Positions 4,121 to 49,193 of a stretch of DNA of 64,000 nt are shown here, piece by piece. Each line of letters starts with the position of its first letter. Position 1 is the stretch's first letter. The notes beneath the pieces were generated by a model. The model was not told the DNA's origin and made no database searches. It was given only the letters and a program-made list of their open reading frames with translations. The DNA is from Bacteroidota bacterium (GTDB taxonomy: Bacteria; Bacteroidota; Bacteroidia; AKYH767-A; 2013-40CM-41-45): assembly GCA_031385005.1 (NCBI GenBank), contig JANNBB010000051.1, positions 87,405-151,404 on the forward strand, in the 5' to 3' direction. A program made the translations under genes and the position numbers.

Positions 4121-4121
4121 T

Positions 4122-4756: not shown

Positions 4757-4781
4757 GTCTGAACAGAGATATCAGAAGTTA

Positions 4782-11682: not shown

Positions 11683-11860
11683 GATAGTAGTTTTAATTCT
11701 ATGATCGTTTTTAATTCTACTGTAAAGATGATCGCTAATTCCATTTCTTTCATTACAAAACTTTAGAAATAAATTACATAACTCACATACTTTTTTAAGA
11801 GTTGAGAAAGTATTAAATGAAACTTAATTGTTTATTACTGTTGCCTGAGCGAAAGAAATA

Positions 11861-15037: not shown

Positions 15038-15093
15038 TAAAAACGAGTACTATATTTTTTTGAGAAGTGACCCGGAAAATATAATACTCGTAA
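15038..15093 (-). terminator. possible rho-independent terminator downstream of the 15106..15351 gene
   Basis: Inverted repeat acgagtactatat (15043-15055) / atataatactcgt (15079-15091), 13 bp with 1 mismatch. On the minus strand it is followed by a T-run (complement of aaaaa 15038-15042). The large loop weakens the call. Confidence 0.3.
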
Positions 15094-15105
15094 GTTTTTA
15101 AATAA

Positions 15106-15351
15106 TTAAATAGTGCCTTTTACAGCTTTATCAGAACTAACCGGAATAGAAGTTTCATGTACATGCTTTGAATCTTCGCGTTCTTTCTCTGTTTCTGTAG
15201 TCATCGGCTTTCCCTTTTCTTGTTCAGTCGCGGCTGTTTTATCAGTAGTTACTTCTTTTTTTGTTTGCGGATTTTGACTGTTGTCATTTCCCATGTTTTG
15301 GTTACCAACTGGAGTTCCTGGAACTGTTTGGTCTTTTTGGTTTTCTGTCAT
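15106..15351 (-). CDS. small hydrophilic, low-complexity protein (hypothetical; stress-protein-like composition)
   Basis: 81 aa, rich in K/E/T/Q with no hydrophobic core (…KKEVTTDKTAATEQEKGKPMTTETEKEREDSK…). Probably intrinsically disordered. Confidence 0.35.
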   Translation of the reverse strand: MTENQKDQTVPGTPVGNQNMGNDNSQNPQTKKEVTTDKTAATEQEKGKPMTTETEKEREDSKHVHETSIPVSSDKAVKGTI

Positions 15352-15500
15352 TTTAAAAATTATTAAACTGGTTAACTAATTAACTATACAAATGTAGGTA
15401 CTGATCATTTTCTAAATGTTACATATTTATTAAATTACATTATATCATTCTTCTAAATATAGGCACATAAATGGGCTTTAAACCTGGGGCTACCTTTGAA

Positions 15501-15986
15501 TTACCGTTGGATTTTCCATTCTTTAAATGGCAACTTAAATCCTGCCTTATAATATTGCATAATGGTAAAAGAGATTATTAATCCCGAACAGACGCCTTCG
15601 ATTAAAGTTGCTCCTGCAGCCCTGGTTGGAGTTATTTCCTCTCCAAGAAACAGTACATTGTCTTGTAACGTCAGAATTAGATTGGGATCGGCAGAAGTGA
15701 AATAAATCCAAATGAAGAAAGAAAAAGAAGCGACACTGATTGATGTAGTCGTCATTCCCAGAAGCATTCCTTCCAAATAAGGGACGTTCAACTCGGTTTT
15801 ACTACGATAATCTTTTAGTGCCAACAGAATACCAATGAATAAGAGGAAAAAATTCATTCCCCATGCAATTCCGCTTGCGGTTAAATTGAATGTACGCATG
15901 ATCATGAAATAAATAATCAGAGCAATACATGTAATTAATCCGTAGAGAAGTCCGATTCTTCCGATTGACACGTTTAAATTTTTCAT
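15501..15986 (-). CDS. small integral membrane protein (DUF4199-like)
   Basis: 161 aa with 4 predicted TM helices. The architecture is typical of Bacteroidota DUF4199 proteins. Confidence 0.4.
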   Translation of the reverse strand: MKNLNVSIGRIGLLYGLITCIALIIYFMIMRTFNLTASGIAWGMNFFLLFIGILLALKDYRSKTELNVPYLEGMLLGMTTTSISVASFSFFIWIYFTSADPNLILTLQDNVLFLGEEITPTRAAGATLIEGVCSGLIISFTIMQYYKAGFKLPFKEWKIQR

Positions 15987-16065
15987 CGTATTTCTATTCT
16001 TAAATTATTTTTTCATTTAAAAAAAAACGCGTAAATGAAATTCCATTTACGCGCTTTTCATTCAT

Positions 16066-16905
16066 CTATTTAACAACTACATTTGTTTTTAGTCCCCATA
16101 CCTCTACCATTGCCATTTCTTTGGTTTGATTTGGGAGAGTTTTATATTCAAAAACGATTTTCTTCAAGTCTCTTTCTCCACCATTCAGGTCAATTGCCTT
16201 ACTTTCACTTCCGGCAATAATCGGAGAATTAACTTTGATGGTTTGTTTATCACCTGATTCATAAAACACATCAAGGCTAATTAATTGAATTGAAGCTTCC
16301 GAAACTTTAAATTTAATAGATGAAAATCGATCAGCGCCAATTACTACAAATTCATCGTGATCTTTTACAAAATTTACTGACCGCTCACCTATTTTATGCC
16401 ATCCTTTTTTATCGCTCATAACTAAACTTGATTCCGCAACGTCGGAAGTAGTTCCTTTTTTGGAAGCCATTTGATTCTCATCTGTATTTGTTTTTAAACC
16501 CCAGATGGTAACTTGAGCTTTTTCATCTTTAACATTTGGAAGTGTTTTATAAACGAATACAATTTTTTTCAAATTGCGTTCTCCACCGTTTAGATCAATT
16601 ACACGACTAGTTCCATTTGCTTTAATAGGTGTTCGAACAATGATGTCTTGTTTATCGCCACTTTCATAATACACTTCAAGATCCATTAGATCAATCGGAG
16701 CATCTTGTACTCTAAACTGAATTGCTGCAAAACGATCTGCACCAATAACACTAATTTCGTCACGATCTCTTTTAAAATCGACAGTAACAGTGCCAATCTC
16801 ATGCCACCCTGTTTTATCACTCACCATTACGGCCGGTGTTTGCGCTTTTGTCATTCCAATACTTGCCATTGCTGCAAGTAGAATAATTTTAGTTGTTTTT
16901 TTCAT
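16066..16905 (-). CDS. secreted protein made of two tandem ~110-aa homologous domains (unknown function)
   Basis: The signal peptide MKKTTKIILLAAMASIGMTKAQT starts at the internal ATG at 16905. Repeat 1 (DKTGWHEIGTVTVDFKRDRDEISVIGADRFAAIQF...VTIWGLKTN) and repeat 2 (DKKGWHKIGERSVNFVKDHDEFVVIGADRFSSIKF...VEVWGLKTN) share roughly 55% identity. Confidence 0.5.
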   Translation of the reverse strand: MKKTTKIILLAAMASIGMTKAQTPAVMVSDKTGWHEIGTVTVDFKRDRDEISVIGADRFAAIQFRVQDAPIDLMDLEVYYESGDKQDIIVRTPIKANGTSRVIDLNGGERNLKKIVFVYKTLPNVKDEKAQVTIWGLKTNTDENQMASKKGTTSDVAESSLVMSDKKGWHKIGERSVNFVKDHDEFVVIGADRFSSIKFKVSEASIQLISLDVFYESGDKQTIKVNSPIIAGSESKAIDLNGGERDLKKIVFEYKTLPNQTKEMAMVEVWGLKTNVVVK

Positions 16906-17163
16906 TTTAATAATTGTTAAACTGTGATTGTTATAATTTAATTTATACATACAAATATCGATCTACTTGCCTATTTAATAGTTACACAATTACTTTTTAA
17001 AATTGTATTATTCATAGATTAATTTATTTTTTGGCTATCCTTTAATTTAATATACTAAGCAGTTATCAAAACAAAGACTTACACGCCTTCCAATAGGCAA
17101 AATTTTATTTTATCGAAAAGAAAATTTATTAATTTGTTTAATTAACTGCGATAAAAAACGAAA

Positions 17164-19872
17164 TTAATAAACCACTAATTTTTTGGAGCTCTTCAGAAAC
17201 TCCCCTTGAATACTAATAATATACAAACCCGCCTTTAGATTTGCCTCTTCTTTTTCAATGGTTAATATTTCGTCACTTGAATTGGAAAATTGTTTGCTAA
17301 AAAATAAATTATCCTCCGGATTAATTATTCTAACAATAACATTATTTTCTAAGGTCCCGTTTATTTTAATATGAATACTCCCTTCCGTTGGATTCGGATA
17401 AATACTTACTTCAGCATTTTCATCTATTCCATTGTCATTTGCATACTTCATAGGTGCAATTGCAGGTTTCTGAATACTGAAATCGTCTTCGATAACTCCT
17501 GTGGAGTTCAGAAAACTGCATTGCAAAACTCCTCCTGTAACATTCAGAATTAAACTGCCATACCCTGATATAATTGATTTATACATGGCATTATGTGGAT
17601 AACCGGGGGAAGTTGCTCCGTAGGCCTGACCGGAAACACCACATACAACGTAAACGGTTCCTGGTCCTGTCCTTGTTGTTTTAGAAAAAGGACCGCTACC
17701 TGACTGAATTACATTTCCGGCCGGGTAAATTGCAGGATTGAAATTAGTTTCCAAACCGGTTTGCCCTTTCATAAAAAAACTGCGTTCATAACTATGACTA
17801 TGCCCACTTAGAACGAGATCAACTCCAAAAGATTCCAAAAGAGGGACAATGTTAATTCGCATGTCTATTAATTCTGTTTCTGTATCTGAATCATGACTAC
17901 CTTTCGAATATGGCGGGTGATGGAAAGCAACAATTGTCCATTGTTGAGTATTGTTTAACAAATCACCTTGAAGCCAGTTATACATGGCACTTGAAGAATT
18001 ATTATACGATCCATAACTATCCAGAGAAATGAAATGTATGTTCCCATAATTTGTGGAATAATATTTTTCCGTACCAGAAGTAGCTGAAGGGATTGTGAAA
18101 ATATTGAAGTAAGGAAAATTTAATCCAAGCGATGCGCTACTTTGATAACCCGACTGACCGTAATCATGGTTTCCTGGTGTAGGAAAAATCGGTGTGTTTT
18201 TAAATATTGAATTGTAGACATTGAATACGTTGTTTTGATATTCAAGATCTGTACCATTGGTATATGCATTATCACCAAGCCACATCCATCCGTTAATGTC
18301 CTGACCGGTTGAATAATTCGAAAATGAATTTCGCACTGCCAGTTGTCCCGAACTTCCATTTCCAAAATCGCCTGTCACCCAAAATTTAATAGGCGTTGAG
18401 CTTGCATTAGCCGGAGCCGTTAAAAAAGAATTATCGATACCGGATTGTAAAACACTTCCAACAGGACCAATGGAGTAATAATATTTTGTATTCGGCGAAA
18501 GTGCACTCACATTAACGGAGTGTTCAATACTTGAATTTAAATCTGTTATTGTATTGATTAACGTACTTGGAGAACTACCATATTTTACCTCGCTATTAGT
18601 AGCTGTACTTGTTCGCCATTGTATTTGAATTCCGGAACTTGTAGATACTGTCAAATATGGTCCACGTATAAGTGTTACAGTACTTGTTCCCGCTAATGTG
18701 GAAAACCAGCCGCTTGTTGAAAAAACACTCGTTCCTCCACTACAAACTGATTGAACAATAAATTCATAATTGGTACCCGGCGCTAAACTATTTAAATCCA
18801 GATAGGTTAAGTTTGTTGTAAATGGAGTAGAATAATTCGCTCCGGAATTTCTGATGCGGTATTCTACATTATAGGAAGATGCTCCTGTAACTGAATTCCA
18901 AAAGACCTGAACGGATGTTGCCGTTTTATTTCTTGTTCCAAAATAATTTACATTGGGAATGGAGCAAGAAGTAGTTGGACCTGTATAGATCGAGGTAGTA
19001 AACCAACCGCTTGTTGAAAATGCACTTACTGTTCCCCCTGCACAAACGGTTTGTACAATAAATTCATAGTTTGTTGAAGATTGAAGGCTTGATAAAATGA
19101 TAGATGTAGTACTTGTGTTGACAGGCAAAGAATACATAGCACCGGAATTTCGAATTCGGTAGGCGACTGAATACGATTGAGCACCTGAAATGGTTTGCCA
19201 AAACACATTAGCCGTTGAAGATAATAAATTTGATACTCCGAATAAATTCGAATTAGGAATAGCACATGTCCCGGCGGCTACTATATTTCCGATTAATTGT
19301 AATTCATAAGTCAGGTCACTTGAATTTGGAGAACTGTTATGCACTTCTGCTGCCACAACATTGTTGCCATTAACAAATAGAGATGCGGGTAAAAGAACAG
19401 TGAAAACCGTATTACCATCATCAGCACATCCTAAACTGGCCCAGGTGTTATAATATATGTTACCTGCCGGCATATTACTTCGATAGACCTCGACGCCATT
19501 TATATAAACGACGATACCATCATCCCTTCTGATCTTAAGCGTAAATCCTGAATATTGGGAAATGTTAGTAAGACTAACTGCTTTTCTGAAATAATAACAA
19601 TTTTTATAGCCAACAACTGATGTAGCTGGAAAATCGCCATAACCTAACTCGGCTGCTCCCGTTGACCAAAGTGCGTCACTATAGGCTAGAGATCTCCAGC
19701 CGACATCCTGATTGGAACCATTATCTAAATATTTCCATGCAGCATTTGCCGGAATTAAAACTGTTTGTGCGCTTGCTTTATATCCTAAAATAAATATACT
19801 GAATAGGACGAGAAATAAAAAAACGAAAAAAGAAAACGCGAGTTGGATTAAATAACCTTTTATCTTTTTCAT
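17164..19872 (-). CDS. calcineurin-like metallophosphoesterase (purple acid phosphatase-like) with two Fn3 domains and T9SS C-terminal domain
   Basis: Metallophosphatase motifs GDFGNG, GDNAY, GNHDY, FHHPPYS, GHSHSYER. Two fibronectin-III-like repeats (…YRIRNSGA.YS…NYEFIVQ.VC.GGT…). C-terminal 'IYPNPTEGSIHIKING…' T9SS CTD. Signal peptide/TM at the N-terminus. Confidence 0.75.
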   Translation of the reverse strand: MKKIKGYLIQLAFSFFVFLFLVLFSIFILGYKASAQTVLIPANAAWKYLDNGSNQDVGWRSLAYSDALWSTGAAELGYGDFPATSVVGYKNCYYFRKAVSLTNISQYSGFTLKIRRDDGIVVYINGVEVYRSNMPAGNIYYNTWASLGCADDGNTVFTVLLPASLFVNGNNVVAAEVHNSSPNSSDLTYELQLIGNIVAAGTCAIPNSNLFGVSNLLSSTANVFWQTISGAQSYSVAYRIRNSGAMYSLPVNTSTTSIILSSLQSSTNYEFIVQTVCAGGTVSAFSTSGWFTTSIYTGPTTSCSIPNVNYFGTRNKTATSVQVFWNSVTGASSYNVEYRIRNSGANYSTPFTTNLTYLDLNSLAPGTNYEFIVQSVCSGGTSVFSTSGWFSTLAGTSTVTLIRGPYLTVSTSSGIQIQWRTSTATNSEVKYGSSPSTLINTITDLNSSIEHSVNVSALSPNTKYYYSIGPVGSVLQSGIDNSFLTAPANASSTPIKFWVTGDFGNGSSGQLAVRNSFSNYSTGQDINGWMWLGDNAYTNGTDLEYQNNVFNVYNSIFKNTPIFPTPGNHDYGQSGYQSSASLGLNFPYFNIFTIPSATSGTEKYYSTNYGNIHFISLDSYGSYNNSSSAMYNWLQGDLLNNTQQWTIVAFHHPPYSKGSHDSDTETELIDMRINIVPLLESFGVDLVLSGHSHSYERSFFMKGQTGLETNFNPAIYPAGNVIQSGSGPFSKTTRTGPGTVYVVCGVSGQAYGATSPGYPHNAMYKSIISGYGSLILNVTGGVLQCSFLNSTGVIEDDFSIQKPAIAPMKYANDNGIDENAEVSIYPNPTEGSIHIKINGTLENNVIVRIINPEDNLFFSKQFSNSSDEILTIEKEEANLKAGLYIISIQGEFLKSSKKLVVY

Positions 19873-24660: not shown

Positions 24661-26559
24661 ATGAAAAAAAATCGTTCGCGCTACAAATTACCCGAATCGA
24701 ATAAAGAAACACATTTAAAAGAAGGGCAAAGTGAAACTCACATCAAGTTGGTACGCCTATTTGGCTTGCTGCTTTTTTTTCTGGCATTTCTTTTATATAT
24801 TAAATCTGTTTTAAATGGATATGCCCTTGACGACTATATCGTAATCCTTAAAAACAGATTCACACAAAAGGGCTTAGCCGGTATAGGAGATCTTTTATCA
24901 AAGGACACTTTTGCTGGAATGACAGAAGATAACATCATGGGACTATCAGGAGGTAGATATCGACCACTATCACTAGTAACATTTGCTATAGAACATCAGT
25001 TTTTCGGAAATGCACCCGGCGTTTCGCATGCTATTAATGTAATTATAAATGCATTTAACAGTGTTCTTATTTTTCTCCTTCTACTGAAATTTAAAACATC
25101 TATCTCAACTAATTCTTGGCTAAAGATTTCATTCGTAGCAGCCATTCTATTTACAGTATTACCGGCACATTCAGAGTCAGTTATTAACATAAAAGGCCGC
25201 GACGATTTGCTTTGTCTGTTCTTTTTCCTTCTCGCTTCACTCCGGTTGTTCCAATACGCTTCCATCCCATCAAGCAAGAACTTGATTATTTCCTGTTTAT
25301 TATTTTTCCTTTCGCTGCTAAGTAAAGAAAACGCACTCACTTTTATTGCCATATTTCCATTGTTCTTATTTTTCTTTTCCCGGGCAGAAAATAAAATTAT
25401 TAGAAATACTACCATCGCTTATGCCTGCATCGGTATTGCATTTTTATTTTTCCGCTATATTATAACGAAAGACAACTCCGGTAATGCCAATCAAGAATTG
25501 CTTAACAATCCTTTCCTTTTTGCAACTTTATCGGAGAAGTTTGCAACGCTTTTTTTTGCAAGTACAATGTATTTTAAATTGATAATGTTTCCTATACATA
25601 TGTCATATGATTATAATTTTAACCAGTTTCCAATAATGGTCTTTAACGATTGGAGAGTATTATTTTCCATTCTCCTCCACCTGGCACTTATAACGGTAGC
25701 AATAATATTTTTCAAACGTAAATCTCTTTTTTCTTTTGGCATCTTGTTTTATTTCATCACATTTTCTATCGTGTCTAACTTTTTCTTTAATATCGGAACT
25801 ATTTTTGCTGATCGATTTATTTATATCCCTTCCTTGGGATTTTGTATTATCGTTGCGACAGCCGGGCATTGGGTTTATGATTGGCTAAAAAGAAAACTAA
25901 ATTTAAACACTTCCCGATATCTTCTTCTTGGTGGATTTACTGCGCTAGCTATTTTATATACAATAAGGATTCAAAGCAGAATAGGTGATTGGGAAAACAA
26001 CAATACATTATTTCTGGCCGATGTAGATGATGCCCCGGAAAGTGTAAAGGTGAGAATTAATGCTTGTTTGGCCTACCTTGAGCTTTCAAAAGATAAAACA
26101 GGATTCGAACGCGACTCCATACTAAACAGAGGAATTCCTGAATTGGAGAAAGCGATCTCTATCTACCCTTCATACGCCACCGGCTATCTGAATATGGGAG
26201 TAATTTATAATTGGCAAGGAGAAACCACAAAAGCTGAGGAATGGTGGAATAAAGCGCGCATGGTCGATCCAACAAATAGTAAATTAATGGAATATGATAA
26301 GGTACTTGCCTCTATTTATTTAAATAATGGAATAAAACTTGGTACCGAAAAAAAATTTAACGAAGCAGTTCGTGATTTTCTTCATGCCTTTCGTTATGAT
26401 TCATTGAATGAAGATTTATTATACAACTTAGGTGGCGCATATTATACAATCAACCGTTTTGATAGTGCCTCCCACTATTGGAATAAAGCCTTGCGTATTA
26501 ATCCTTCCAATAATAGAGTAAAAGAAGGGCTTAACGCACTTTCACACATTCAAAAATAA
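24661..26559 (+). CDS. TMTC/DUF1736-like GT-C-fold membrane glycosyltransferase with C-terminal TPR repeats (paralog A)
   Basis: About 11 TM helices. First lumenal loop carries a DD motif (NGYALDDYIVI). Conserved TMTC-type block LPAHSESVINIKGRDDLL (compare TMTC HP.HTEAV....GR.ELL). C-terminal ~180 aa soluble TPR array (…YPSYATGYLNMGVIYNWQGETTKAEEWWNKA…). Confidence 0.65.
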   Translation: MKKNRSRYKLPESNKETHLKEGQSETHIKLVRLFGLLLFFLAFLLYIKSVLNGYALDDYIVILKNRFTQKGLAGIGDLLSKDTFAGMTEDNIMGLSGGRYRPLSLVTFAIEHQFFGNAPGVSHAINVIINAFNSVLIFLLLLKFKTSISTNSWLKISFVAAILFTVLPAHSESVINIKGRDDLLCLFFFLLASLRLFQYASIPSSKNLIISCLLFFLSLLSKENALTFIAIFPLFLFFFSRAENKIIRNTTIAYACIGIAFLFFRYIITKDNSGNANQELLNNPFLFATLSEKFATLFFASTMYFKLIMFPIHMSYDYNFNQFPIMVFNDWRVLFSILLHLALITVAIIFFKRKSLFSFGILFYFITFSIVSNFFFNIGTIFADRFIYIPSLGFCIIVATAGHWVYDWLKRKLNLNTSRYLLLGGFTALAILYTIRIQSRIGDWENNNTLFLADVDDAPESVKVRINACLAYLELSKDKTGFERDSILNRGIPELEKAISIYPSYATGYLNMGVIYNWQGETTKAEEWWNKARMVDPTNSKLMEYDKVLASIYLNNGIKLGTEKKFNEAVRDFLHAFRYDSLNEDLLYNLGGAYYTINRFDSASHYWNKALRINPSNNRVKEGLNALSHIQK

Positions 26560-26602
26560 TTACTAATTAAGTTTAATACCTGATTCAACCAATCCCTTTA
26601 GA

Positions 26603-27355
26603 ATGATAAATGGTAAAAAAATTATTGTAGTACTTCCGGCTTACAATGCTGAACAAACTCTTGAGATTACATATTCTGAAATTCCATTTGATATTGTAGA
26701 TGATGTCATTTTAGTTGACGATGCAAGCAGAGATAATACAGAAATGGTTGCCAGAAACATCGGCATTAAACACATTATTCGACATGAAGTAAATAAAGGA
26801 TATGGCGGAAATCAAAAAACATGTTATGACAAAGCACTCTCTTTGAATGCAGATATCGTTATTATGCTTCATCCCGATTATCAATATACTCCTAAATTAA
26901 TCCCTTCCATTGCCTATCTGATTGCTAACGATCTGTTTCCTGTCGTTCTAGGTTCAAGAATATTAGGAAATGGTGCTTTGAAAGGGGGTATGCCACTTTA
27001 TAAATATTTTTTTAACAGGATGTTGACACTTACTCAAAACTTATTGGTTAATCAAAAATTGTCTGAATACCATACAGGTTACCGAGGATTTTCTCGTAAA
27101 GTATTACTAAGTATAGATTATCATTCCAATTCAGACGATTTCATTTTCGACAATCAAATGTTGTCACAAATAATTTATTCAGAATTCGATATAGGAGAAA
27201 TTTCCTGCCCTGCTAAATACTTTAAAGAAGCATCCTCGATTAATTTTAGCAGAAGTGTAGTTTACGGAATTGGTGTATTAACTGTATCTATAAAACACTT
27301 TTTACAGCGAATGGGATTAGCTAGGTATAAGCTATATCAAAAACGAAAAGAATAA
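26603..27355 (+). CDS. GT2-family glycosyltransferase, DPM1/polyprenyl-phosphate-hexose synthase-like (soluble catalytic domain)
   Basis: IIVVLPAYNAEQTL…VDDASRDNT (DxD region)…HPDYQY. 250 aa with no TM segments, like DPM1/GtrB catalytic domains. Confidence 0.7.
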   Translation: MINGKKIIVVLPAYNAEQTLEITYSEIPFDIVDDVILVDDASRDNTEMVARNIGIKHIIRHEVNKGYGGNQKTCYDKALSLNADIVIMLHPDYQYTPKLIPSIAYLIANDLFPVVLGSRILGNGALKGGMPLYKYFFNRMLTLTQNLLVNQKLSEYHTGYRGFSRKVLLSIDYHSNSDDFIFDNQMLSQIIYSEFDIGEISCPAKYFKEASSINFSRSVVYGIGVLTVSIKHFLQRMGLARYKLYQKRKE

Positions 27356-27436
27356 ATTAATTTCTACTATGAAAAAATTAGAACATTAAATTCGAAATCA
27401 AATAAAATCTATTCTTTCATAATACATGATCGCCAT

Positions 27437-29338
27437 TTACTTCCCAAGGAGTTTTCCGCTTTCTAGAAATCCTTGTCGAGCATTTTGATAGTCGGGATTA
27501 ATTTCCATAATCTTTCCAAATGCTTCATGCGCCTTTTCAAAATTTCCCGTAGTAAAATATAGGCCTCCTAAATTATAAAGACAGTTTACTTTGAGAGAAT
27601 CGTTACGGGAAGAATAAAATAATGCTTTATTAAAATAATAAAGAGAGGAATCAAGAATATTTTTCCTCGCATAATCCATGCCTTCGCTGAGGTATTTATC
27701 AGCAAGGAAATTGTCGAAATATTTCAGCTTGGGATGATTGGGGGTGCTCTTTCGAACCTTTTCCCAATAAACTTCCGCTTTTACTGTGCTATCGATCTGA
27801 CTATATGCGACGCCTAAGTTTAACAGTGCATCGTTATATTCAGGATAAATCTGTATCGATTTCTTCAAATAACCTATCGCTTCTATAATAAAACTATCCC
27901 TCCGTGACTTTGGTATCTCCTTGTTAAAACTATAAAAAAGGTATGCTCCTCCGGCCCCACAATTAGCTCGTGCACTATTCGGGGATTTGGAAATATCCGC
28001 TAATGTAAGCAATTGCTCATTTTTCCATTCTTCATTTCGCGTGATCGTTTTATATGACCCTGCAAGAAATAAAGGGGTAATAAGAATGATAGTCAGAACT
28101 GACTTCTTTGTATTCAAAGCCGGATGATTAATTAGCCTGTTGCCAGCCAATACAAGGAATAAGCAAAAATAGATAGAAGGAATAAATAAAAGTCTTTCCC
28201 CAAAAATCATTCCGATATCAACAAAAAGATTGCTGCCAATTGATAAGGTTATCAATAACATAATCAGACAAAACGAAAACACATTCTTCTTTCTAAAACC
28301 GGCAATTGCCGTAATAAACATTACAAAAAAAACAAAGACTGATACCCAAACCCATGGTTCATCTATATTTTTATAAGGAATTTGGTTAAACGAATAATCA
28401 TAACTCAAGGGATGCGGGAAAAATAACATCTTCAAATCGAATAATAACACATATAGTTTTGTAAAAAGAGGTTCAAATCCTTTTGCAAACAAATAAGCAT
28501 TATTAATAATTTCGGGATTAGGAGCTATTCCTCCGAAAGGAACTATTGAATTTCTAATCAGTAAATAAAAAAAAGAAACGACAAGAAATCCCCCGGCATA
28601 CTTGACGATTTCCTTTGTCATAAAATTGCTGAAGAAATATAGCATGACAGGTATTCCCAAAAGAAAGGTAAAACTATTCTCCTTAGCCGTAAGTGAGATA
28701 AAAAAGAAAAGAAAAGATAAAAACAGTTGCATATGCTTACTTGATTGAACATGTTTCCACAAATAAAACAATGATAACAATAGAAAAAGCAAGCACAATA
28801 ATTCATCACGACCTTTAATATTCGCCACCACTTCCGTATGTATCGGATGAATGGCAAATAATAAAGCAGAAAAGAAAGACAACCATACTTCCTTTAACAA
28901 ATATTTATAAAATAATAAAAACAACAATACTACAATGCATGAATATAAAAAGACATTAATAAGATGACTGATGCCGGGTTTGTTTTTACCAAAAACGCCT
29001 ATTTCAATAGAATATGTAATTAGTGATAATGGTCGCCAACCACTACTTGCCGCCGTCTTGCTTTTTACCTGCTTATATCCATAAAGTAAATCCTGACCGA
29101 TATGCTCGGTTATTCCGGCAAATCCCTTTTGTGTAGTTTTATTCTCAGTTATAAATAATGTATCATCGAGACAATAATCATTCAAACAGGTGTTCATATA
29201 AATTATCGAGCAAATAATCACCAAAACCCAAATCAAGGAATTGGAATAGTCATTAATTTTCAACGTTCTTTTATAGATCGGTGAATCTAATTTAGCTTCA
29301 GAAAAAATTTTTTTGCGTGAAATCTTTTTATTGCTCAT
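27437..29338 (-). CDS. TMTC/DUF1736-like GT-C-fold membrane glycosyltransferase with C-terminal TPR repeats (paralog B)
   Basis: Clear homolog of 24661..26559 (NDYCLDDTLFIT; FAIHPIHTEVVANIKGRDELL; C-terminal TPR IQIYPEYNDALLNLGVAYSQ…). Convergent with the GT2 gene. Confidence 0.65.
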   Translation of the reverse strand: MSNKKISRKKIFSEAKLDSPIYKRTLKINDYSNSLIWVLVIICSIIYMNTCLNDYCLDDTLFITENKTTQKGFAGITEHIGQDLLYGYKQVKSKTAASSGWRPLSLITYSIEIGVFGKNKPGISHLINVFLYSCIVVLLFLLFYKYLLKEVWLSFFSALLFAIHPIHTEVVANIKGRDELLCLLFLLLSLFYLWKHVQSSKHMQLFLSFLFFFISLTAKENSFTFLLGIPVMLYFFSNFMTKEIVKYAGGFLVVSFFYLLIRNSIVPFGGIAPNPEIINNAYLFAKGFEPLFTKLYVLLFDLKMLFFPHPLSYDYSFNQIPYKNIDEPWVWVSVFVFFVMFITAIAGFRKKNVFSFCLIMLLITLSIGSNLFVDIGMIFGERLLFIPSIYFCLFLVLAGNRLINHPALNTKKSVLTIILITPLFLAGSYKTITRNEEWKNEQLLTLADISKSPNSARANCGAGGAYLFYSFNKEIPKSRRDSFIIEAIGYLKKSIQIYPEYNDALLNLGVAYSQIDSTVKAEVYWEKVRKSTPNHPKLKYFDNFLADKYLSEGMDYARKNILDSSLYYFNKALFYSSRNDSLKVNCLYNLGGLYFTTGNFEKAHEAFGKIMEINPDYQNARQGFLESGKLLGK

Positions 29339-29570: not shown

Positions 29571-31895
29571 TTGATGTATTACATTTTTAAAAAAATTATT
29601 TTTGTTTTTTTGCTTTGGATATTGGCTTCCAATGGTGAAACGATTGCACAAACCTATACCATGGCTTCCGGAACAATTTCAACTTGTAGCGGAACATTTT
29701 ATGATCCGGGCGGGACTTCTAATTATGGAAACAACTTAAATATTACTGAAACTTTTTGTTCCAATGCAGGAAATTGCATTCGCATTAGTTTCACCTCTTT
29801 TAATACTCAGGCAGGAAACGATATTCTTACCATTTACGATGGTCCTTCAACAGCATCTGCTGTAATCGGCAGTTACTCGGGAAACACTTCACCCGGTGTT
29901 GTAATTTCGTCTTCCGGTTGTCTGACATTTAAATTCGTTACCAATGGAAGTAATGTTAAAGCCGGCTGGGCTGCGACTATATCGTGTGTTTCCTGTGGAA
30001 ATATTTATCTGATGAATAATAATACAGCCGTTAACACCTGTAACGGACTTTTTTATGATGATGGCGGACTTGCCGGAAATTATGCAAACAATTTAAACTT
30101 CACGAAAACATTTTGTTCTTCTCCTGCCGGAAGCTGCATTCAAATACTCTTTACAGCTTTCAATCTGAAGGCAAACGATATATTAACTTTTTACAATGGC
30201 TCAACAGTTGCCTCGCCTTTAATCGGCGCCTATACTGGTACTACCCTTCCTCCAACAATTCTTTCATCAACCGGTTGCCTGACTGTAAACTTCACAACTA
30301 ATGGCTCATCTGTTGGTTCCGGTTGGGAAGCCGTTGTTTCTTGTGAACCCTGTCCTACTCCACCGGGTGGATCAGCGACTTATACGCATCCAACTGTCGG
30401 TTTGCAAAATGCCTATGTCGGAACCAATATGGTTGCAACATGCAGTGGTACTTACACTGACAATGGTGGCGTTGGTGGAAATTATTCTGCCAACATCAAC
30501 GATGTTTATCGCACATTTTGTCCGAACCAAGCCGGAAAATGTATGCGGGCGACTTTCTGGTCGTTAGACATTGAAGGTCCTTTCGGCGGCTTTTATACAG
30601 ATTACCTCGAAATTCTAAACGGCCCGACTCAAAATAGCCCTCAATTCGGTACGGGTTCTATCTGGTACGGAACCGCTACCACCTATCAAGCGTGTATGAA
30701 TGCCGGATTAGGACCTTATGTCTCAACGGATCAAAGCGGTTGCCTTACTTTTATTTTTAATTCTGATGGATCTGTTAATCAGGCCGGCTGGGTTGCAACT
30801 TTGGATTGTGTGCCTTGTTCGAACGGCCCAAATGGAACAGACAATAGCGATTGTATTACTCCTACTGCAATCTGTACGAATCAAAGTTTTACCGATGCCA
30901 GCACAGGTCCTGGAATTGTTTCAGATGGCGGAGGTGGTTGTGTATTAGCAGAAAATTTCTCGAACTGGTATCGAATACTGATCAACACCTCAGGAACATT
31001 AGGGTTGAATATCGTTCCCAATAATGTCAATGATGATTACGATTTTGCACTATATCAATCGGCAACATGTGCCGGATTAGGAGCACCCGTTCGATGCTCT
31101 TATGCTGCGAACACAGGTAATACGGGAATGGACAATGCACTTAACTTATCTACCAATACAGCTATCTGCGGAACTCCAAACAATGGTTCGGATATCTCCG
31201 AAGATGTTTGTGGAAATGCCTGGGTAAACACACTGCCTGTTATTGCCGGCCAAGCATATTATTTATTGGTAAACAAATGGTCGCCCGGTGGAAGTGGATT
31301 TACTTTAAACTGGGTACTCTCCGGAGGAGCATCATTGAATTGCGCAGTTCTACCTGTGGAATTGTTGTCCTTCGATGGTTATCCGGATGATAAAAAAGTT
31401 ATTCTCACCTGGACAACTGCCAGCGAAATCAACAACAGTTATTTCACCGTTGAAAAAAGTGCAGATGGAAAACATTTCGAACCTTTTCAGATTGTTGAAG
31501 GTGCTGGAACGAGCACGGTAATCAACAACTACTCAACTGTTGACTTATCACCATTACCGGAAATCTCTTACTATCGCCTCAAACAAACCGACTACGATGG
31601 CATGATTTCCTATTCAGAGATCATAGTTGTTCAAAGTAATGTTACTGATGTCTTCTATGCAATTCCAAATCCCGGTATTGATAAAACCAAACTTGTTTTT
31701 AGCTCGTCAGAAAAAGGAGATCAGAATTTGACCGTTTATAGTATGCAGGGGTTTCCGCTTTTCAAAGACAAAGTTGATGCCGATCGCGGAATTAATTTTT
31801 ATGATCTTGTTCTTCAGGATTTCGAAAAAGGAATTTATTTTATTATTTTGGATGATAAAAAAACGTTTAGGAAAATTCGATTTGTTAAACTATAG
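29571..31895 (+). CDS. secreted protein with four CUB-like domains and T9SS C-terminal domain
   Basis: Four repeats of C..G.F.D.GG...Y.NN…C…I.F..F…DIL.IYDG…SGC.TF.F..NGS…GW…C. C-terminal T9SS-type domain (…YYRLKQTDYDGMISYSEIIVV…). Confidence 0.55.
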   Translation: MMYYIFKKIIFVFLLWILASNGETIAQTYTMASGTISTCSGTFYDPGGTSNYGNNLNITETFCSNAGNCIRISFTSFNTQAGNDILTIYDGPSTASAVIGSYSGNTSPGVVISSSGCLTFKFVTNGSNVKAGWAATISCVSCGNIYLMNNNTAVNTCNGLFYDDGGLAGNYANNLNFTKTFCSSPAGSCIQILFTAFNLKANDILTFYNGSTVASPLIGAYTGTTLPPTILSSTGCLTVNFTTNGSSVGSGWEAVVSCEPCPTPPGGSATYTHPTVGLQNAYVGTNMVATCSGTYTDNGGVGGNYSANINDVYRTFCPNQAGKCMRATFWSLDIEGPFGGFYTDYLEILNGPTQNSPQFGTGSIWYGTATTYQACMNAGLGPYVSTDQSGCLTFIFNSDGSVNQAGWVATLDCVPCSNGPNGTDNSDCITPTAICTNQSFTDASTGPGIVSDGGGGCVLAENFSNWYRILINTSGTLGLNIVPNNVNDDYDFALYQSATCAGLGAPVRCSYAANTGNTGMDNALNLSTNTAICGTPNNGSDISEDVCGNAWVNTLPVIAGQAYYLLVNKWSPGGSGFTLNWVLSGGASLNCAVLPVELLSFDGYPDDKKVILTWTTASEINNSYFTVEKSADGKHFEPFQIVEGAGTSTVINNYSTVDLSPLPEISYYRLKQTDYDGMISYSEIIVVQSNVTDVFYAIPNPGIDKTKLVFSSSEKGDQNLTVYSMQGFPLFKDKVDADRGINFYDLVLQDFEKGIYFIILDDKKTFRKIRFVKL

Positions 31896-31968
31896 TTTGT
31901 TGGATTGCGCTAACTTAAAAAAGAGAACAAAGAGCAACCGATTTGAATTTGGCTAAAACTGTTAAGTA

Positions 31969-33540
31969 TTAATACTTAACTAACTTTTGAGTATTGAATA
32001 GTTTTCCATTTGCAATTACCCTTACAAAATAAAATCCAGTTGGAATATCCGCTTTTATATTTAACAACGAAGCGGAAGGGTTTGAAGAAGCAAAAACAAT
32101 TTGACCAATATTATTAATGATTTCTACACCAGGGTTATTCACCCATTCACCGAAGTCTATAATGAAATCATCCTTTGAAGGATTGGGGTAAATAGAAAAG
32201 TCTGTAGTAGCCAAATTATTGTTTCCGGAGAGACATGAATTCGGACAAATCGTATTAAAAGAAGCAAAAGAGTCAATGAGCGTCCAGTTCATATCAGACC
32301 ACGCTGAATCGTCAACTTCAATACATGTGAGGTTTGGATTATTGTTAGCGGCAAAATATTGAAAAAAAGTATTGTTGCCATTTTTTACATTTAAACAAAA
32401 AAGATCGTTGCCGGTGCAATTCAACATTCGTAATACACTATTCTGCGCCAAATTTAGTCCTGTGAGTTGATTGTTGGAGCAATAAAAATTTCCAAGAACT
32501 GCATTGTAGGAGACATTTATACTTGCAAGTTGATTGCTATCGCATCTTAAATAAATTAAATCCAAATTTTGACTTGGATCTAAACTATTCAACAGGTTTT
32601 CTTCTAGCGACAAACTGTACATCTGGGTGTTTCGGGAAATATCAAGAGCGGTCAACAGATTAAAACCACATCTTAAATCACGCAGATTAATATTATGAGT
32701 AACATCTAAAGCCGCCAATAAGTTATGACTACAATCCAAATGAGTTATATCGGAATTCCGGGTTAGGTCTAAGCTTTGTATGTTATTATTGTAACAGCCT
32801 AAGGTGATTAATAGTGGATTAAATGATACATCCAAATTATTGAGTTGGTTGTAATGACAGTGGAAATGCTTTAAGCCCTGACATACAGAAACATCTATGT
32901 TCGTTAGTAAATTATTACCAACATTCAGTACAGTTAATCCGGAATTGCCAGACAAGTCTAAATTGGTTAGTTGATTGTAATCGCATCTCAGATAGTTCAG
33001 AGAAATATTATTAGATAGATCTAAAGTTGTTAGCTGTGAATTATAACAAAGCAATGTTTCAAGAGATGGGTTTTGTGAGAGATCTACTGTACTTAATGGA
33101 TTATAGCTACAATTCAAAGTAGTTAATGCTGCTAGAGCAGAAATATCTAAAACAGAAAGAGCATTAATGTCACACTGAAGAGAAGTTAGTAAGATATTTT
33201 GCGAAATATTCAAATTTGAAATTTGATTAGCCCTGCAATCCAAAGAGGTTAAAGCAGTATTTTGTGAAAGATCCAGATTAGTGAGGATGTTATTGCTGCA
33301 ATTCAAAGAAGTAAGAGCAACAAAATCCTGTATTCCTGTTAAATCTGAAATATCAAATGGATTGGCCACATTTAATACAGTTATTGTATCGGTTCTAGAT
33401 GTACTGATAAAGCCATCAGGCACACCCGTGTCGATGCCCCAAAGTATAAGGGTTTTTTCAAATGCGGAATCCGGAATTGCTGTGAATTGAGCTTGTACAT
33501 TCACATAAATGAATGTTAAAAGAAAAGTTAAATACTTCAT
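31969..33540 (-). CDS. leucine-rich repeat (LRR) protein with T9SS C-terminal domain
   Basis: About 18 tandem 22-aa LRRs (LTSLDCRANQISNLNISQNILLTSLQC…). Signal peptide MKYLTFLLTFIYVNVQAQ. C-terminal 'IYPNPSKDDFIIDF…' CTD. Confidence 0.7.
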   Translation of the reverse strand: MKYLTFLLTFIYVNVQAQFTAIPDSAFEKTLILWGIDTGVPDGFISTSRTDTITVLNVANPFDISDLTGIQDFVALTSLNCSNNILTNLDLSQNTALTSLDCRANQISNLNISQNILLTSLQCDINALSVLDISALAALTTLNCSYNPLSTVDLSQNPSLETLLCYNSQLTTLDLSNNISLNYLRCDYNQLTNLDLSGNSGLTVLNVGNNLLTNIDVSVCQGLKHFHCHYNQLNNLDVSFNPLLITLGCYNNNIQSLDLTRNSDITHLDCSHNLLAALDVTHNINLRDLRCGFNLLTALDISRNTQMYSLSLEENLLNSLDPSQNLDLIYLRCDSNQLASINVSYNAVLGNFYCSNNQLTGLNLAQNSVLRMLNCTGNDLFCLNVKNGNNTFFQYFAANNNPNLTCIEVDDSAWSDMNWTLIDSFASFNTICPNSCLSGNNNLATTDFSIYPNPSKDDFIIDFGEWVNNPGVEIINNIGQIVFASSNPSASLLNIKADIPTGFYFVRVIANGKLFNTQKLVKY

Positions 33541-33626
33541 TGTAGAAAATTTTTATAATTAAAGATACATATATTTACATAAATAAAACGGAGTTTATGT
33601 TTTTTCGAATTCTTGCTAATTCAAAG

Positions 33627-34046
33627 ATGACCAATCAGATTTTCCCTTTCAGACTTTTAATTTGCCTTTGTTTGCTATTGTTTGTTTTAAAGTCAAATTC
33701 GCAAACAAATGGTAGCGCTTTAAACAACACCTACGTTTCTTCCTATTTAGATTCAAAAAAAATACTTGGTATTTGGAGTTTGGTCGATTCTATTGGTTAT
33801 GATATAGAATTTATCGATTCCGGATATGAGATCGAATTAAAAAGTAACTATTCTCACAAATATTATTTTTCTAAAGATTCTACTGGTCATATGTCCTCTT
33901 CGGGCTATTATCCCCAATGGCCACCACCGGGCTGCGATTTAGTACTTATTTCCAACGATACTCTGAAAATCACTTATTCGCCATTTTTTGAACCGGGTCC
34001 AAGTTTTTTTTATGTTAAAAAGAATAGACTAATAAAAAAGAAATGA
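33627..34046 (+). CDS. hypothetical secreted protein
   Basis: Signal peptide MTNQIFPFRLLICLCLLLFVLKSNSQ at the internal ATG 33627 (the ORF track starts at 33597). Confidence 0.4.
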   Translation: MTNQIFPFRLLICLCLLLFVLKSNSQTNGSALNNTYVSSYLDSKKILGIWSLVDSIGYDIEFIDSGYEIELKSNYSHKYYFSKDSTGHMSSSGYYPQWPPPGCDLVLISNDTLKITYSPFFEPGPSFFYVKKNRLIKKK

Positions 34047-34723
34047 AAATTGCATTGACAATAACAATAACGTTAATGACAGTTTTTGCCAATGGGCAAG
34101 TTAACCAATATTTTATTGAGGAATACCCACAAGATACTTTTCCATGCGGTATTCCATTTTGTGTAAGTTATTCACATGAAGAGCAAGTTGATTTCGGCGC
34201 CATCTATCATACCGACACAATAGAAGGAGAACTTCAGGATATTTTTGAATCAAATGAACTCTTTGAAAGAGATAGCATGCGTCTATTACCAAAAGATTTT
34301 GTCAAATTACATTTATTACCTCTAACAAAACTATTAGACTCTACGGATTCTAAAAATAAAGACTCCACTCCCGGTGAATCGCTTGATGAATATCTGAAGG
34401 CTGATTTCTATGCCCGGCAATTAGTCGTTAAGACAACTATGTACTATGGTGTAATTTATGAAAGAATTTTTGCCGAAGGACTACGCAGTTCAGAAAAGTT
34501 TCTCAGTACCTTTGATATTAGTGGAAATTTTATTTCAAGAATAAAAATTGCTTCTTTTATATTCAATGGAACAGGTTTTAGTTCATCAGGCCAAAGAGTT
34601 CCCTGGTTTCCGCTTGAATACGGTTGCATCCAAAAGGACTTGAAAATTAAATTCATTTCGCAAGAACACGGAAACAAGAATTATAAAATTGAAGCAAACG
34701 GTGAAATAATCGAAATAAAATAA
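34043..34723 (+). CDS. hypothetical secreted protein
   Basis: 4-bp overlap with the upstream gene (ATGA). Signal peptide MKIALTITITLMTVFANGQ. Confidence 0.4.
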   Translation: MKIALTITITLMTVFANGQVNQYFIEEYPQDTFPCGIPFCVSYSHEEQVDFGAIYHTDTIEGELQDIFESNELFERDSMRLLPKDFVKLHLLPLTKLLDSTDSKNKDSTPGESLDEYLKADFYARQLVVKTTMYYGVIYERIFAEGLRSSEKFLSTFDISGNFISRIKIASFIFNGTGFSSSGQRVPWFPLEYGCIQKDLKIKFISQEHGNKNYKIEANGEIIEIK

Positions 34724-34775
34724 TTTTGATTCGATTCTTAAATACATCAGGTATTTTGTATCTTTAATAAAAAAA

Positions 34776-35564
34776 ATGAAAAACAGTTATTTGATTTTCC
34801 TACTTGTATTATTTTTTACATCGGTTTATTCTCAAAATTCTAACTACGAATTTTCAGGCAGGTACACACCGGTTATTAAAAAAGAAATGCTGAATGATGC
34901 TATGTATATAAGTGAAATTACACCTGAAATCGGTCGCTATTTTATGTTACCGTACAAATCTCAAGAAAAGCTGAATCAACTATTAAGAATACAAAAATTG
35001 GTAAATTATAATCAGGAGAGTTTTTACAAAGTTATAGATTATGTTTCTTTTAATATCACAACAACTATTAAAGGCAAAACTTTTACGTCTGAAAGTTTAA
35101 GTGAAAAACTAACATTTTTCCAAAAAAATATTTTATATCATGCTGATTTAGGAAGTGAAATTCAAATGAATATAAAATTTAAATTTAAAAATCAGTTTTA
35201 TGATAATTCTGAAATTTCAAATACAATTCAAGAAGGAGAATATTCAGTAACAGTAGTCCCTGAATCTGAAGCGGAATTTCCTGGCGGACTCAAACAGTTA
35301 CCATTTTATTATTTTGAAAGCGTAATGAATAAAGTGCATGATAAAGGCCTGGCCGAAAAATTCCGTAATGCCATAGTAGAGTTCACAGTTAATGAAGAAG
35401 GCCAAATCGTTGATGCAAAAATTACACGAACATCATCAGATATTAAAATCGACAAATTATTAATCGATGCCACATATAAAATGCCAAAGTGGATTCCTGC
35501 AAAAAACTCAAAAGGAATAAAAGTTAAACAAGCTTTCAACATTCCTTTTGGTGGCGGATGTTAG
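34776..35564 (+). CDS. secreted protein with TonB C-terminal-like domain
   Basis: Signal peptide. C-terminal ~90 aa (AEFPGGLKQLPFYYFESV…GLAEKFRNAIVEFTVNEEGQIVDAKI…) resembles TonB_C / energy-transducer family domains. Confidence 0.4.
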   Translation: MKNSYLIFLLVLFFTSVYSQNSNYEFSGRYTPVIKKEMLNDAMYISEITPEIGRYFMLPYKSQEKLNQLLRIQKLVNYNQESFYKVIDYVSFNITTTIKGKTFTSESLSEKLTFFQKNILYHADLGSEIQMNIKFKFKNQFYDNSEISNTIQEGEYSVTVVPESEAEFPGGLKQLPFYYFESVMNKVHDKGLAEKFRNAIVEFTVNEEGQIVDAKITRTSSDIKIDKLLIDATYKMPKWIPAKNSKGIKVKQAFNIPFGGGC

Positions 35565-35750
35565 ATTTTGATTTTAAAAATAATTCTGCAAAAGTTTACG
35601 CGCAAATTTCTATCCACACTACAAGCAATAATATTTAGGACAGATTTAAAAACTTTCACTTTTTTGGTAATGAATTTGTCAGAAGATGCCATTTCGCTAC
35701 TTTATAAAAAGTAATTATGTAACTTTCAAAAATAAATTAACTATTAATAG

Positions 35751-37136
35751 ATGAAAATAAATCTACTAACTGCAATACTAATCTCATTCTTTTCACAAGC
35801 AGATGCACAATTTTGTTTTAGTCCGATAACTGCATATCCAGCAGGTGGTAATTCGGGATCGATTTGTACAGGATATTTCAATTCGGATAGCATACTTGAT
35901 CTTGCAGTAGCAAATCGTTCAGGAACTGTTTCAATTTTAACGGGAAATTCCGGCGGTCTTTTTAATGCTGCTTCAAGCTTTAATGTTGGATATCTGCCTT
36001 ATTCCATTTGTTCCGCTGATTTCAACAACGATAACAATGCAGATATAGCAACTGCCAACAGAGGGCCCTGGGACATATCCACTTACAATGGAAATGGAAT
36101 GGGCACTTTTGTTACCGGTATTTCAATACCAATGGCTAATCCGACAGCAGTAATAACTGACGATTTTAACCTTGATGGAAAAGCTGATTTGGCTTTTGCT
36201 CATTATGGTCTAGTCTTAATCGCCTTGGGTGATGGCACCGGAAATTTCAGCACACCACATAGTACCGCATTAAGCAGTATGATAAACTGTATTACATCGG
36301 CTGATTATAATAATGATAGCATTCCCGATATTGCAGCTTGTGAAGGGGGAACTATTGATGTAGTCATTTTACAAGGCGATGGTTTAGGCGGATTAACCAC
36401 AGTCAATACGCTTCCTGTTGATACCGCTCCGATTGCTATAATAAATGGTGACTTCAATAACGACGGCCTTATAGATTTGGCGACAGCAAATGTGAAACTA
36501 AATACTCACGGAAGTGTTTCTATTTTTCTAAACACCGGCACCGGAAATTTTGGACCGGCAACAAATTTTTCATTAGGAATAAATACCAAACCTGTATCCA
36601 TTTGTACAGCCGACTTCGACGGCGACAATAAACCGGATCTTGCTTTTGGCACCATTGCAAATAACAGCACACCCTATGTTACGCTTATGCAAGGAGACGG
36701 ATTTGGCAGCTTTGGAATTCCTATGAATATAGCTGTTGACTCCTTTCCGACTTCAATCGCTAGCGCCGATTTTAACAGTGACGGAAAAATGGATCTGGCG
36801 CTGGTTTGTGTTTACAACAATGCGAGCATTGGCAATGTAGATGTTTTATTAAATTGTACGCCTACCGGAATTTCTGAAATGGAAAATGATAACCACACAC
36901 TTTTAGTTTATCCAAATCCGCATGAAGGAATTTTCTCCATTCAGATTAACACAGATGTTTTGATCGTTGGAGACTTGGAAATTCTAAATATAACCGGCGA
37001 AAAAATGTTATCAGTTCCTGTTTCTGAAAATAAAAATTCTGTTCTGATAGATTTAAGCAATCGACCTAAAGGAGTATATCTGGCAAAGTTAAAAACAGCA
37101 GACCGTATAGTAACCAAGTTAATAAATCTGCAATAA
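35751..37136 (+). CDS. FG-GAP/VCBS repeat beta-propeller protein with T9SS C-terminal domain
   Basis: Repeats ADFNNDNNADIA, DDFNLDGKADLA, ADYNNDSIPDIA, GDFNNDGLIDLA, ADFDGDNKPDLA, ADFNSDGKMDLA. C-terminal 'LVYPNPHEGIFSIQI…' CTD. Confidence 0.7.
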   Translation: MKINLLTAILISFFSQADAQFCFSPITAYPAGGNSGSICTGYFNSDSILDLAVANRSGTVSILTGNSGGLFNAASSFNVGYLPYSICSADFNNDNNADIATANRGPWDISTYNGNGMGTFVTGISIPMANPTAVITDDFNLDGKADLAFAHYGLVLIALGDGTGNFSTPHSTALSSMINCITSADYNNDSIPDIAACEGGTIDVVILQGDGLGGLTTVNTLPVDTAPIAIINGDFNNDGLIDLATANVKLNTHGSVSIFLNTGTGNFGPATNFSLGINTKPVSICTADFDGDNKPDLAFGTIANNSTPYVTLMQGDGFGSFGIPMNIAVDSFPTSIASADFNSDGKMDLALVCVYNNASIGNVDVLLNCTPTGISEMENDNHTLLVYPNPHEGIFSIQINTDVLIVGDLEILNITGEKMLSVPVSENKNSVLIDLSNRPKGVYLAKLKTADRIVTKLINLQ

Positions 37137-49147: not shown

Positions 49148-49193
49148 AAATTGATCTACTTGGAATACACTATGAATTGAAAACGCATACCGA

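Follow-up and report, generated by a model that had tools for sequence, protein, structure and literature searches.

Gene arrangement of the locus

Here, we report on three adjacent genes in a window of 64,000 nucleotides (i.e., the whole stretch of DNA that was analysed, positions 87,405 to 151,404 of contig JANNBB010000051.1 from a Bacteroidota bacterium), which may together form a glycosylation system acting outside the cytoplasm. Two of them, A and B, encode large membrane proteins that resemble the animal TMTC protein O-mannosyltransferases, and the third, GT2, encodes a family-2 glycosyltransferase that probably makes a lipid-linked sugar donor. The first-pass annotation of this DNA had proposed a three-component protein O-glycosylation module at this place, and all three open reading frames (ORFs) are indeed present as it described them. 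The features of the locus are as follows.

24661..26559, plus strand: gene A, 632 aa, TMTC-like GT-C glycosyltransferase, with an 11-transmembrane (TM) domain (aa 1-443) and a TPR array (aa 444-632)
24829..24834, plus strand: DD motif of A (D57-D58, TMTC motif M1) in the first periplasmic loop, a putative catalytic/acceptor-binding acidic pair, invariant in a 47-sequence alignment
25990..26559, plus strand: TPR array of A (aa 444-632), about 10 helices in 4-5 TPR-like repeats (Pfam TPR_1/TPR_2/TPR_11), predicted periplasmic
26603..27355, plus strand: GT2, 250 aa, TM-less DPMS/PpgS-like family-2 glycosyltransferase, putative undecaprenyl-phosphate sugar synthase
27437..29338, minus strand: gene B, 633 aa, second TMTC-like GT-C with a TPR array, convergent with the A-GT2 operon

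GT2 begins 43 bp after A, so the two genes probably form one operon; B is convergent with it, with 81 bp between the stop codons of GT2 and B. No ORF of 80 aa or more lies inside or directly flanking the A-GT2-B region except a 139-aa antisense ORF (24996-25415, minus strand), which falls entirely within A, would translate into a low-complexity sequence rich in Lys and Arg, and is almost certainly not a real gene. Scans for promoters and terminators gave no excess of sites over shuffled sequence. A and B are 35% identical over 595 residues (E 7e-94) and, judged by their sequences, are old paralogs; a recent duplication was ruled out, as they fall into different clades of a neighbor-joining tree and are not sisters, and the closest relative of A has a GT2 and no B.

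A and B as TMTC-like GT-C glycosyltransferases

The first-pass annotation had assigned A and B to the TMTC/PMT type of GT-C enzymes with a periplasmic TPR array. In Pfam, both proteins gave strong TPR matches at their C-termini, and their scores for TMTC_DUF1736 (PF08409), i.e., 21.1 bits for A and 22.9 bits for B, fall below the gathering score of 27 bits. The wider family carries the assignment further: in an alignment of 47 homologs that are 30 to 58% identical to A, 37 match TMTC_DUF1736 at E ≤ 1e-3 (best 7.6e-10) and 26 match PMT_2, and a relative at locus L146 reaches 27.7 bits for TMTC_DUF1736. This alignment has 34 invariant columns, and B has all of the residues of A at these columns. 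Eisenhaber and colleagues tabulated seven TMTC motifs (PMC7801869), which compare with the present family as listed here.

M1: DD in TMTC; D57 D58 here, exact
M2: SHKSYRP in TMTC; GGRYRP here, with R101 and P102 invariant and Y100 nearly invariant
M3: RxD in TMTC; R180 D181 (D/E)182 here
M4: KE(T/Q)xxT in TMTC; K222 E223 N..T227 here
M5: DW in TMTC; D317 Y318 here
M6: PxxP in TMTC; not found here
M7: ERxxY in TMTC; (D/E)384 R385 here

Six of the seven motifs are thus recognisable and invariant in the family alignment (Y100 nearly so), with M2 to M5 and M7 in variant forms. The sequence hallmarks quoted earlier for the two proteins largely hold: NGYALDDY is present in A and NDYCLDDT in B, together with an H.E.V.NIKGRD(D/E)LL block and the C-terminal TPRs, but the HP.H.E element occurs only in B (HPIHTE), the corresponding segment of A being LPAHSE. 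The B segment LLFAIHPIHT is close to LLFAVHPIHT of human TMTC3, as the latter is quoted in PMC7801869.

The AlphaFold model of A (pLDDT 89.5, pTM 0.87) has 11 long membrane helices followed by ten short ones (447-631). Combining these helices with a positive-inside count gave 11 TM segments, a basic N-terminus, and short Lys/Arg-rich loops on the inner side; all conserved motifs map to loops assigned to the outer side, where the 61-residue loop 270-330 bears the TMTC_DUF1736 match (282-343). The TPR array is also placed outside, because it follows the eleventh TM helix and is on the same side as the DD loop. TMTC proteins have 11 TM helices, a cytoplasmic N-terminus, the DUF1736 loop between TM7 and TM8, and a non-cytoplasmic TPR array (PMC7801869), and the predicted model of A has the same topology. 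The best structural matches of the model are yeast Pmt4 and Pmt2, STT3B, and PglB; ArnT is not within the top 60. Both a GT-C membrane fold and an acidic motif in the first extracytoplasmic loop were found. Based on family Pfam matches, motifs, predicted fold, and topology, the TMTC/PMT-type assignment is upheld, with A and B themselves below the DUF1736 cut-off, and the two proteins are very probably lipid-phosphate-sugar-dependent GT-C transferases.

The family is large. More than 2000 relatives came up when the membrane domain was used as the query, almost all of them in Bacteroidota metagenome-assembled genomes (MAGs); with the 455-residue membrane domain alone, 15,940 cluster representatives match at E ≤ 1e-10, and 2,308 do so at E ≤ 1e-30. 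Databases already label the members by homology, i.e., as "DUF1736 domain-containing", "glycosyltransferase family 39", "tetratricopeptide repeat protein", or, at JGI, "protein O-mannosyl-transferase". GT105, the CAZy family of the TMTC proteins, is present in prokaryotes to a limited extent (preprint). The earlier remark that TMTC-type enzymes have no assigned role in bacteria agrees with the literature searched, in which we found no functional study of a bacterial member. At locus L044 of a Bacteroidetes MAG (2052-11659), five TMTC-like paralogs lie in tandem on one strand, which suggests diversification of client specificity within one genome.

GT2 as a putative donor synthase

GT2 matches PF00535 with 66 bits and has no hydrophobic TM segment, so that its earlier description as TM-less stands. 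Its best NCBIfam matches, PpgS (polyprenyl-phospho-GalNAc synthase), a haloarchaeal Dol-P-hexose transferase, and AglJ, are all lipid-phosphate glycosyltransferases. The scores are low (PpgS 46.7 bits over profile positions 3-170 of 226 vs a cut-off of 370; ArnC 24.2 vs 529), and as GT2 is below every curated equivalog cut-off, it is not an ortholog of any named enzyme. Mycobacterial PpgS is likewise a short GT2 without TM segments, and its product serves a GT-C enzyme. The family around GT2 is strongly conserved, with more than 100 clusters that are 73 to 83% identical in Bacteroidota, Ignavibacteria, and Kapabacteria; the JGI name of the orthologs is generic ("glycosyltransferase involved in cell wall biosynthesis").

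In a Foldseek search with the GT2 model (pLDDT 87.5), GpgS, ArnC, DPMS, and GtrB came out about level (TM-scores 0.65-0.72); the predicted fold alone does not separate the soluble GpgS from the lipid-phosphate enzymes. A profile of the GT2 family searched against the PDB placed Pyrococcus furiosus DPMS first (E 2.1e-11, the next at 4e-6), with GpgS absent at E ≤ 1e-3. We read this family-profile alignment against the DPMS structure paper (PMC5526996). D92 and Q94 of GT2 preserve the DPMS metal ligands D91 and Q93. The lipid-phosphate ligands R117, R131, and S135 align with R119, K134, and N138, all invariant in the GT2 family, and by this alignment two of the three would be kept (R119 and K134). 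The DxD motifs of DPM1/GtrB type claimed earlier are only partly there: the second one reads H90-P-D92, aligned to DADLQH of P. furiosus DPMS, but the metal-ligand Asp is retained as D92. The two mannose contacts of DPMS are lost, with H90 in place of D89 and Y95 in place of H94, so that the sugar of GT2 is probably not mannose.

The GT2 model has amphipathic helices at residues 132-149 and 215-237, at the positions of the DPMS interface helices IFH1 and IFH2, with a low-confidence loop (203-214) before the second, and the C-terminus of GT2 coincides with the start of the DPMS TM domain. DPMS without its membrane domain remains active and membrane-bound (PMC5526996). Taken together, the metal ligands, the aligned phosphate ligands, and the modeled interface-helix positions point to DPMS-type polyprenyl-phosphate features in GT2, in line with the earlier assignment. 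It is likely, on the whole, that GT2 makes a lipid-phosphate-sugar donor for A and B.

Linkage of GT-C and GT2 genes in other genomes

The pairing was counted from both sides, in 80 genome loci with TMTC-like genes and in 38 well-flanked metagenome loci with GT2. A GT2 ortholog (56-71% identical) adjoins the TMTC-like gene in 12 of the 80 loci. The order GT-C then GT2 is shared by this window and by loci of Chitinophagales, Bacteroidales, and Chlorobiota MAGs, the two genes lying 0 to 40 bp apart or overlapping by a few codons, and other linked loci have the reverse order. A relative of A at 59% identity keeps the tight A-GT2 operon and has no B, a relative at 51% identity has no GT2 nearby, and a convergent second paralog recurs in four loci. 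The GT2-linked GT-C genes fall into at least four clades of a rough neighbor-joining tree; the association of GT-C and GT2 genes suspected from this locus alone is thus a conserved operon in distant lineages.

From the GT2 side, a TMTC-like neighbor is found in six of the 38 loci. A GT-C or GT-C-like membrane protein lies within 4.5 kb of GT2 in 21 of the 38 loci, 15 with Pfam support (PMT_2 or DUF1736); please note that "GT-C-like" includes, with reservation, the membrane-protein types of L081 and L156, whose similarity to GT-C is weak (65-83% probability by profile comparison). The immediate neighbor of GT2 is a large polytopic protein in 16 of the 38 loci, where 16% would be expected from the composition of these loci (P 1.6e-4), and when SulP-like transporters are excluded the count is 13 of 38 (P 0.006). 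In eight loci (L102, L104, L127, L129, L132, L136, L141, and L143) GT2 is part of a GT2-PAP2-PMT_2 cassette on one strand, often with overlapping genes; this is possibly a module for dephosphorylation and glycosylation of lipid A or lipopolysaccharide (LPS) that shares the donor synthase. In a 4.7-Mb genome GT2 is convergent with a PMT_2 gene. GT2 is therefore found beside several unrelated GT-C families, as expected of a lipid-phosphate-sugar synthase.

Some further neighbors were seen in these loci. In L118, L138, and L140 (about 7800-14700; Bacteroidales-type contigs), GT2 is followed on the same strand by a protein of about 2000-2270 aa with CHU_C-associated Ig-like domains, and in L138 and L140 GT2 is preceded, at a distance of about 1.2 kb, by a TMTC-like gene; this very large surface protein is a candidate client. 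Directly after the A-GT2 operon of the closest relative of A comes a gene for a 7TMR-DISM/SpoIIE protein.

Proposed mechanism and its alternatives

We propose that the A-GT2 operon encodes a two-step glycosylation outside the cytoplasm, with B as a second transferase on the same donor, a reading that we consider about evenly poised as a whole. In the first step, the TM-less GT2 would be held on the cytoplasmic face of the membrane by its two amphipathic interface helices and would move one sugar, probably not mannose, from a nucleotide sugar to undecaprenyl phosphate. The lipid-phosphate-sugar would then have to be flipped to the periplasmic face, a step for which no gene was found here. Finally, A and B would bind it through conserved residues of their periplasmic loops (DD, YRP, RD, KE..T, DY, and (D/E)R) and pass the sugar on to an acceptor bound by the TPR arrays in the periplasm. 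By homology, the likeliest acceptors would be Ser/Thr residues of particular periplasmic or surface proteins, and A and B may serve different client sets. That the acceptor is a protein is suggested by the homology with TMTC and PMT enzymes, and we advance it tentatively, at slightly less than even confidence.

Several observations weigh against this proposal and should be read together with it. The Pfam scores of A and B for TMTC_DUF1736 are sub-threshold, and motif M6 (PxxP) was not found in the family alignment. GT2 is far below all NCBIfam equivalog cut-offs, has no TM anchor, and has a His in place of the first Asp of the DXD motif; the soluble-acceptor enzyme GpgS was ranked level with ArnC, DPMS, and GtrB by Foldseek. 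In 68 of the 80 TMTC-like loci no GT2 adjoins, and in 32 of the 38 GT2 loci there is no TMTC-like neighbor. The GtrA family has no Pfam match among the 39 window proteins scanned, and without a GtrA-type flippase gene nearby the three-component set of the first-pass annotation is incomplete. TPR arrays occur on polysaccharide-export scaffolds too and are thus no proof of a protein acceptor.

The most serious alternative keeps the chemistry and changes the acceptor: A and/or B would glycosylate lipid A or the LPS core, exopolysaccharide (EPS), or peptidoglycan, in the manner of ArnT- or GtrC-type enzymes, and the TPR array would attach them to export or assembly machinery instead of binding substrate proteins. 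The GT2-PAP2-PMT_2 gene set does recall lipid A remodelling systems, and the eight loci given above each combine a GT2 ortholog, a PAP2 phosphatase, and an ArnT-like PMT_2 protein in one cassette. PMT_2, which 26 of the 47 family members match, is a Pfam family that includes ArnT-like enzymes, and in NCBIfam the TPR arrays match BcsC, PgaA, and PilW-type scaffolds. On the other hand, the motifs and the DUF1736 loop are of the TMTC kind, and TMTC proteins are protein O-mannosyltransferases; the GT-C structures that match best (Pmt4, Pmt2, STT3B, and PglB) are all protein glycosyltransferases, with ArnT outside the top 60; and no LPS or EPS genes flank the locus. We regard a non-protein acceptor as rather unlikely, and as the alternative that deserves most attention.

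A second alternative separates GT2 from its neighbors, i.e., GT2 would be a cytoplasmic, GpgS-like or cell-envelope polymer glycosyltransferase whose adjacency is incidental, and A and B would draw their donor from another synthase. Glucosyl-3-phosphoglycerate synthases top the Foldseek list, the enzyme has no TM segment and an HPD in place of DXD, a TMTC-like neighbor is seen in only six of the 38 loci, and the JGI names of the orthologs merely refer to cell wall biosynthesis. Yet the tight or overlapping operon recurs across distant lineages and in several clades, and GT2 repeatedly adjoins different GT-C families. The family profile also puts DPMS first in the PDB while GpgS drops out, and, by the alignment and the model, the positions of the lipid-phosphate ligands and interface helices of DPMS appear to be kept. 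An unrelated GT2 seems improbable to us.

Much wider in scope, and very doubtful, is the idea that GT2 and the TMTC-like GT-C are the initiating machinery of general O-glycosylation in Bacteroidota, adding the first, conserved hexose to D(S/T)x sites directly from undecaprenyl-phosphate-hexose. The Bacteroidota enzyme that places the core glycan on proteins has been reported as still undiscovered (PMC12871550; PMC6120980), and a monosaccharide transferase of the PMT/TMTC type would explain why a PglL-type oligosaccharyltransferase has not been found. However, the TMTC-like family is patchy and multi-copy (up to five in tandem, in L044), a pattern more in keeping with client-specific enzymes than with a single essential one. 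Transfer of a preassembled core glycan as a unit, which is the current model, also speaks against it. A component of the LFG-type system would be expected to lie in or with a glycosylation locus of a Wzx flippase and several glycosyltransferases, and to occur in every species that is known to modify D(S/T)(A/I/L/V/M/T) sites; no LFG-like genes were found in the window.

Lastly, it is scarcely credible that A and B have lost catalysis and serve as TPR-bearing membrane scaffolds (pseudo-enzymes): their sub-threshold DUF1736 scores and missing M6 would agree with it, but the residues equivalent to the catalytic, metal, and phosphate ligands of TMTC are invariant in all 47 homologs despite identities to A of only 30-58%, which indicates selection on the active site.

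Comparison with known systems

Returning to the proposed donor synthase with two GT-C transferases, its closest relatives in architecture are the animal TMTC1-4 proteins (CAZy GT105), the Dol-P-Man-dependent protein O-mannosyltransferases of cadherins. They share with A and B the 11-TM GT-C domain with N-terminus in and C-terminus out, the DD in loop 1, recognisable forms of the YRP, RxD-like, KE..T, D-aromatic, and (E/D)R motifs, the DUF1736 loop between TM7 and TM8, and a C-terminal non-cytoplasmic TPR array. In contrast to the animal proteins, the TPR array here is much shorter (about 4-5 repeats), M6 is absent, the HK of M2 reads GR, the Pfam score is below cut-off, and the gene is in an operon with a putative donor synthase; the carrier would be undecaprenyl rather than dolichyl phosphate, as the organism is bacterial.

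In actinobacteria, Ppm1 and Pmt (GT39) are a pair in which a GT2 polyprenyl-phosphate sugar synthase supplies a GT-C that glycosylates secreted proteins (PMC5882110), a function that is predicted here, and the PMT fold is the best structural match of the A model. Pmt differs in having a MIR domain and no TPRs, in belonging to another glycosyltransferase family, and in working in a Gram-positive envelope, and the sugar here is probably not mannose. Streptococcal GtrB and PgtC2 likewise combine an undecaprenyl-phosphate sugar synthase of the GtrB/DPMS class with a GT-C acting on extracytoplasmic protein segments, PgtC2 O-glucosylating Ser/Thr-rich regions of streptococcal membrane proteins (PMC12041528); for A and B such an acceptor is a prediction. 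Unlike GT2, GtrB has TM helices. PgtC2 has no TPRs, showed no sequence relationship at the level tested, and modifies disordered S/T-rich tails, of which there is no evident counterpart near this locus. GtrA/GtrB/GtrC and ArnC/ArnT (PMC11127046) follow the logic proposed for the locus, in which a GT2 works in the cytoplasm, the sugar is carried on a lipid phosphate, and a GT-C acts in the periplasm, and ArnC and GtrB are close structural matches of GT2; in contrast, there is no GtrA-like flippase gene here, GT2 has no C-terminal TM hairpin, and those systems modify O-antigen or lipid A. Mycobacterial PpgS gives the top NCBIfam match of GT2, with a score far below the 370-bit cut-off, so that the two are not orthologs.

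The locus is a homology-based prediction of an ordinary, known mechanism, plausible and without a new principle. If it is true, bacterial members (about 16,000 cluster representatives at E ≤ 1e-10, matched by the membrane domain alone) would be added to a TMTC-type family that has until now been studied in animals alone, together with a defined donor pathway and a genetically tractable operon, and this would offer a simple system for target choice by TPR-bearing GT-C enzymes. The enzyme family is very common in environmental bacteria.

Surroundings of the locus in the window

The window is, as had been noted, dense in cargo of the type IX secretion system (T9SS), with 11 ORFs that carry C-terminal sorting domains in 64 kb.

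1332-19872, 29571-37136, and 52784-61463: T9SS sorting-domain ORFs, 11 in total

They include a CotH-kinase/lamin-tail protein (7170-11165), a two-CUB-domain protein (29571-31895), FG-GAP proteins, a SprB-repeat protein, an M14 carboxypeptidase with a GEVED domain, and a purple-acid-phosphatase-like protein. With an HMM built from the sorting domains of the window itself, we counted T9SS ORFs around related genes elsewhere, where they account for 3-4% of the ORFs (19 of 603 near TMTC-like genes, 24 of 586 near GT2 genes). The earlier suggestion that T9SS cargo are the substrates is not borne out, as the cargo density is local to the window, and T9SS cargo were ruled out as conserved partners of TMTC-like or GT2 genes on the same counts. 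The S/T-rich linkers ascribed to the cargo were not found either; the maximal S+T content is 0.30-0.50 per 30 residues, and 16-22% overall.

A third GT-C, a 443-aa PMT_2 protein (ArnT/PMT-like), is encoded at 42977-44308 on the minus strand, convergent with a DUF6252 lipoprotein gene (41949-42842, plus strand) whose product the first-pass annotation had named as a possible substrate. This third GT-C might share the same lipid-phosphate-sugar donor; as the usual companion of GT2 it was ruled out, since it differs from the PMT_2 type found beside GT2 elsewhere. Further along, 47228-50911 holds a GH85 endo-beta-N-acetylglucosaminidase (47228-49147, plus strand), CutC (49194-49937, minus strand), and an Asparaginase_2/glycosylasparaginase-type protein (49934-50911, minus strand), which look like a set for the breakdown of N-glycans or glycopeptides. 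Ahead of the lipoprotein gene come a LytTR-type response regulator (39590-40333) and, after it, a protein with cyclic-nucleotide-binding and SpoIIE-type phosphatase domains (40438-41703).

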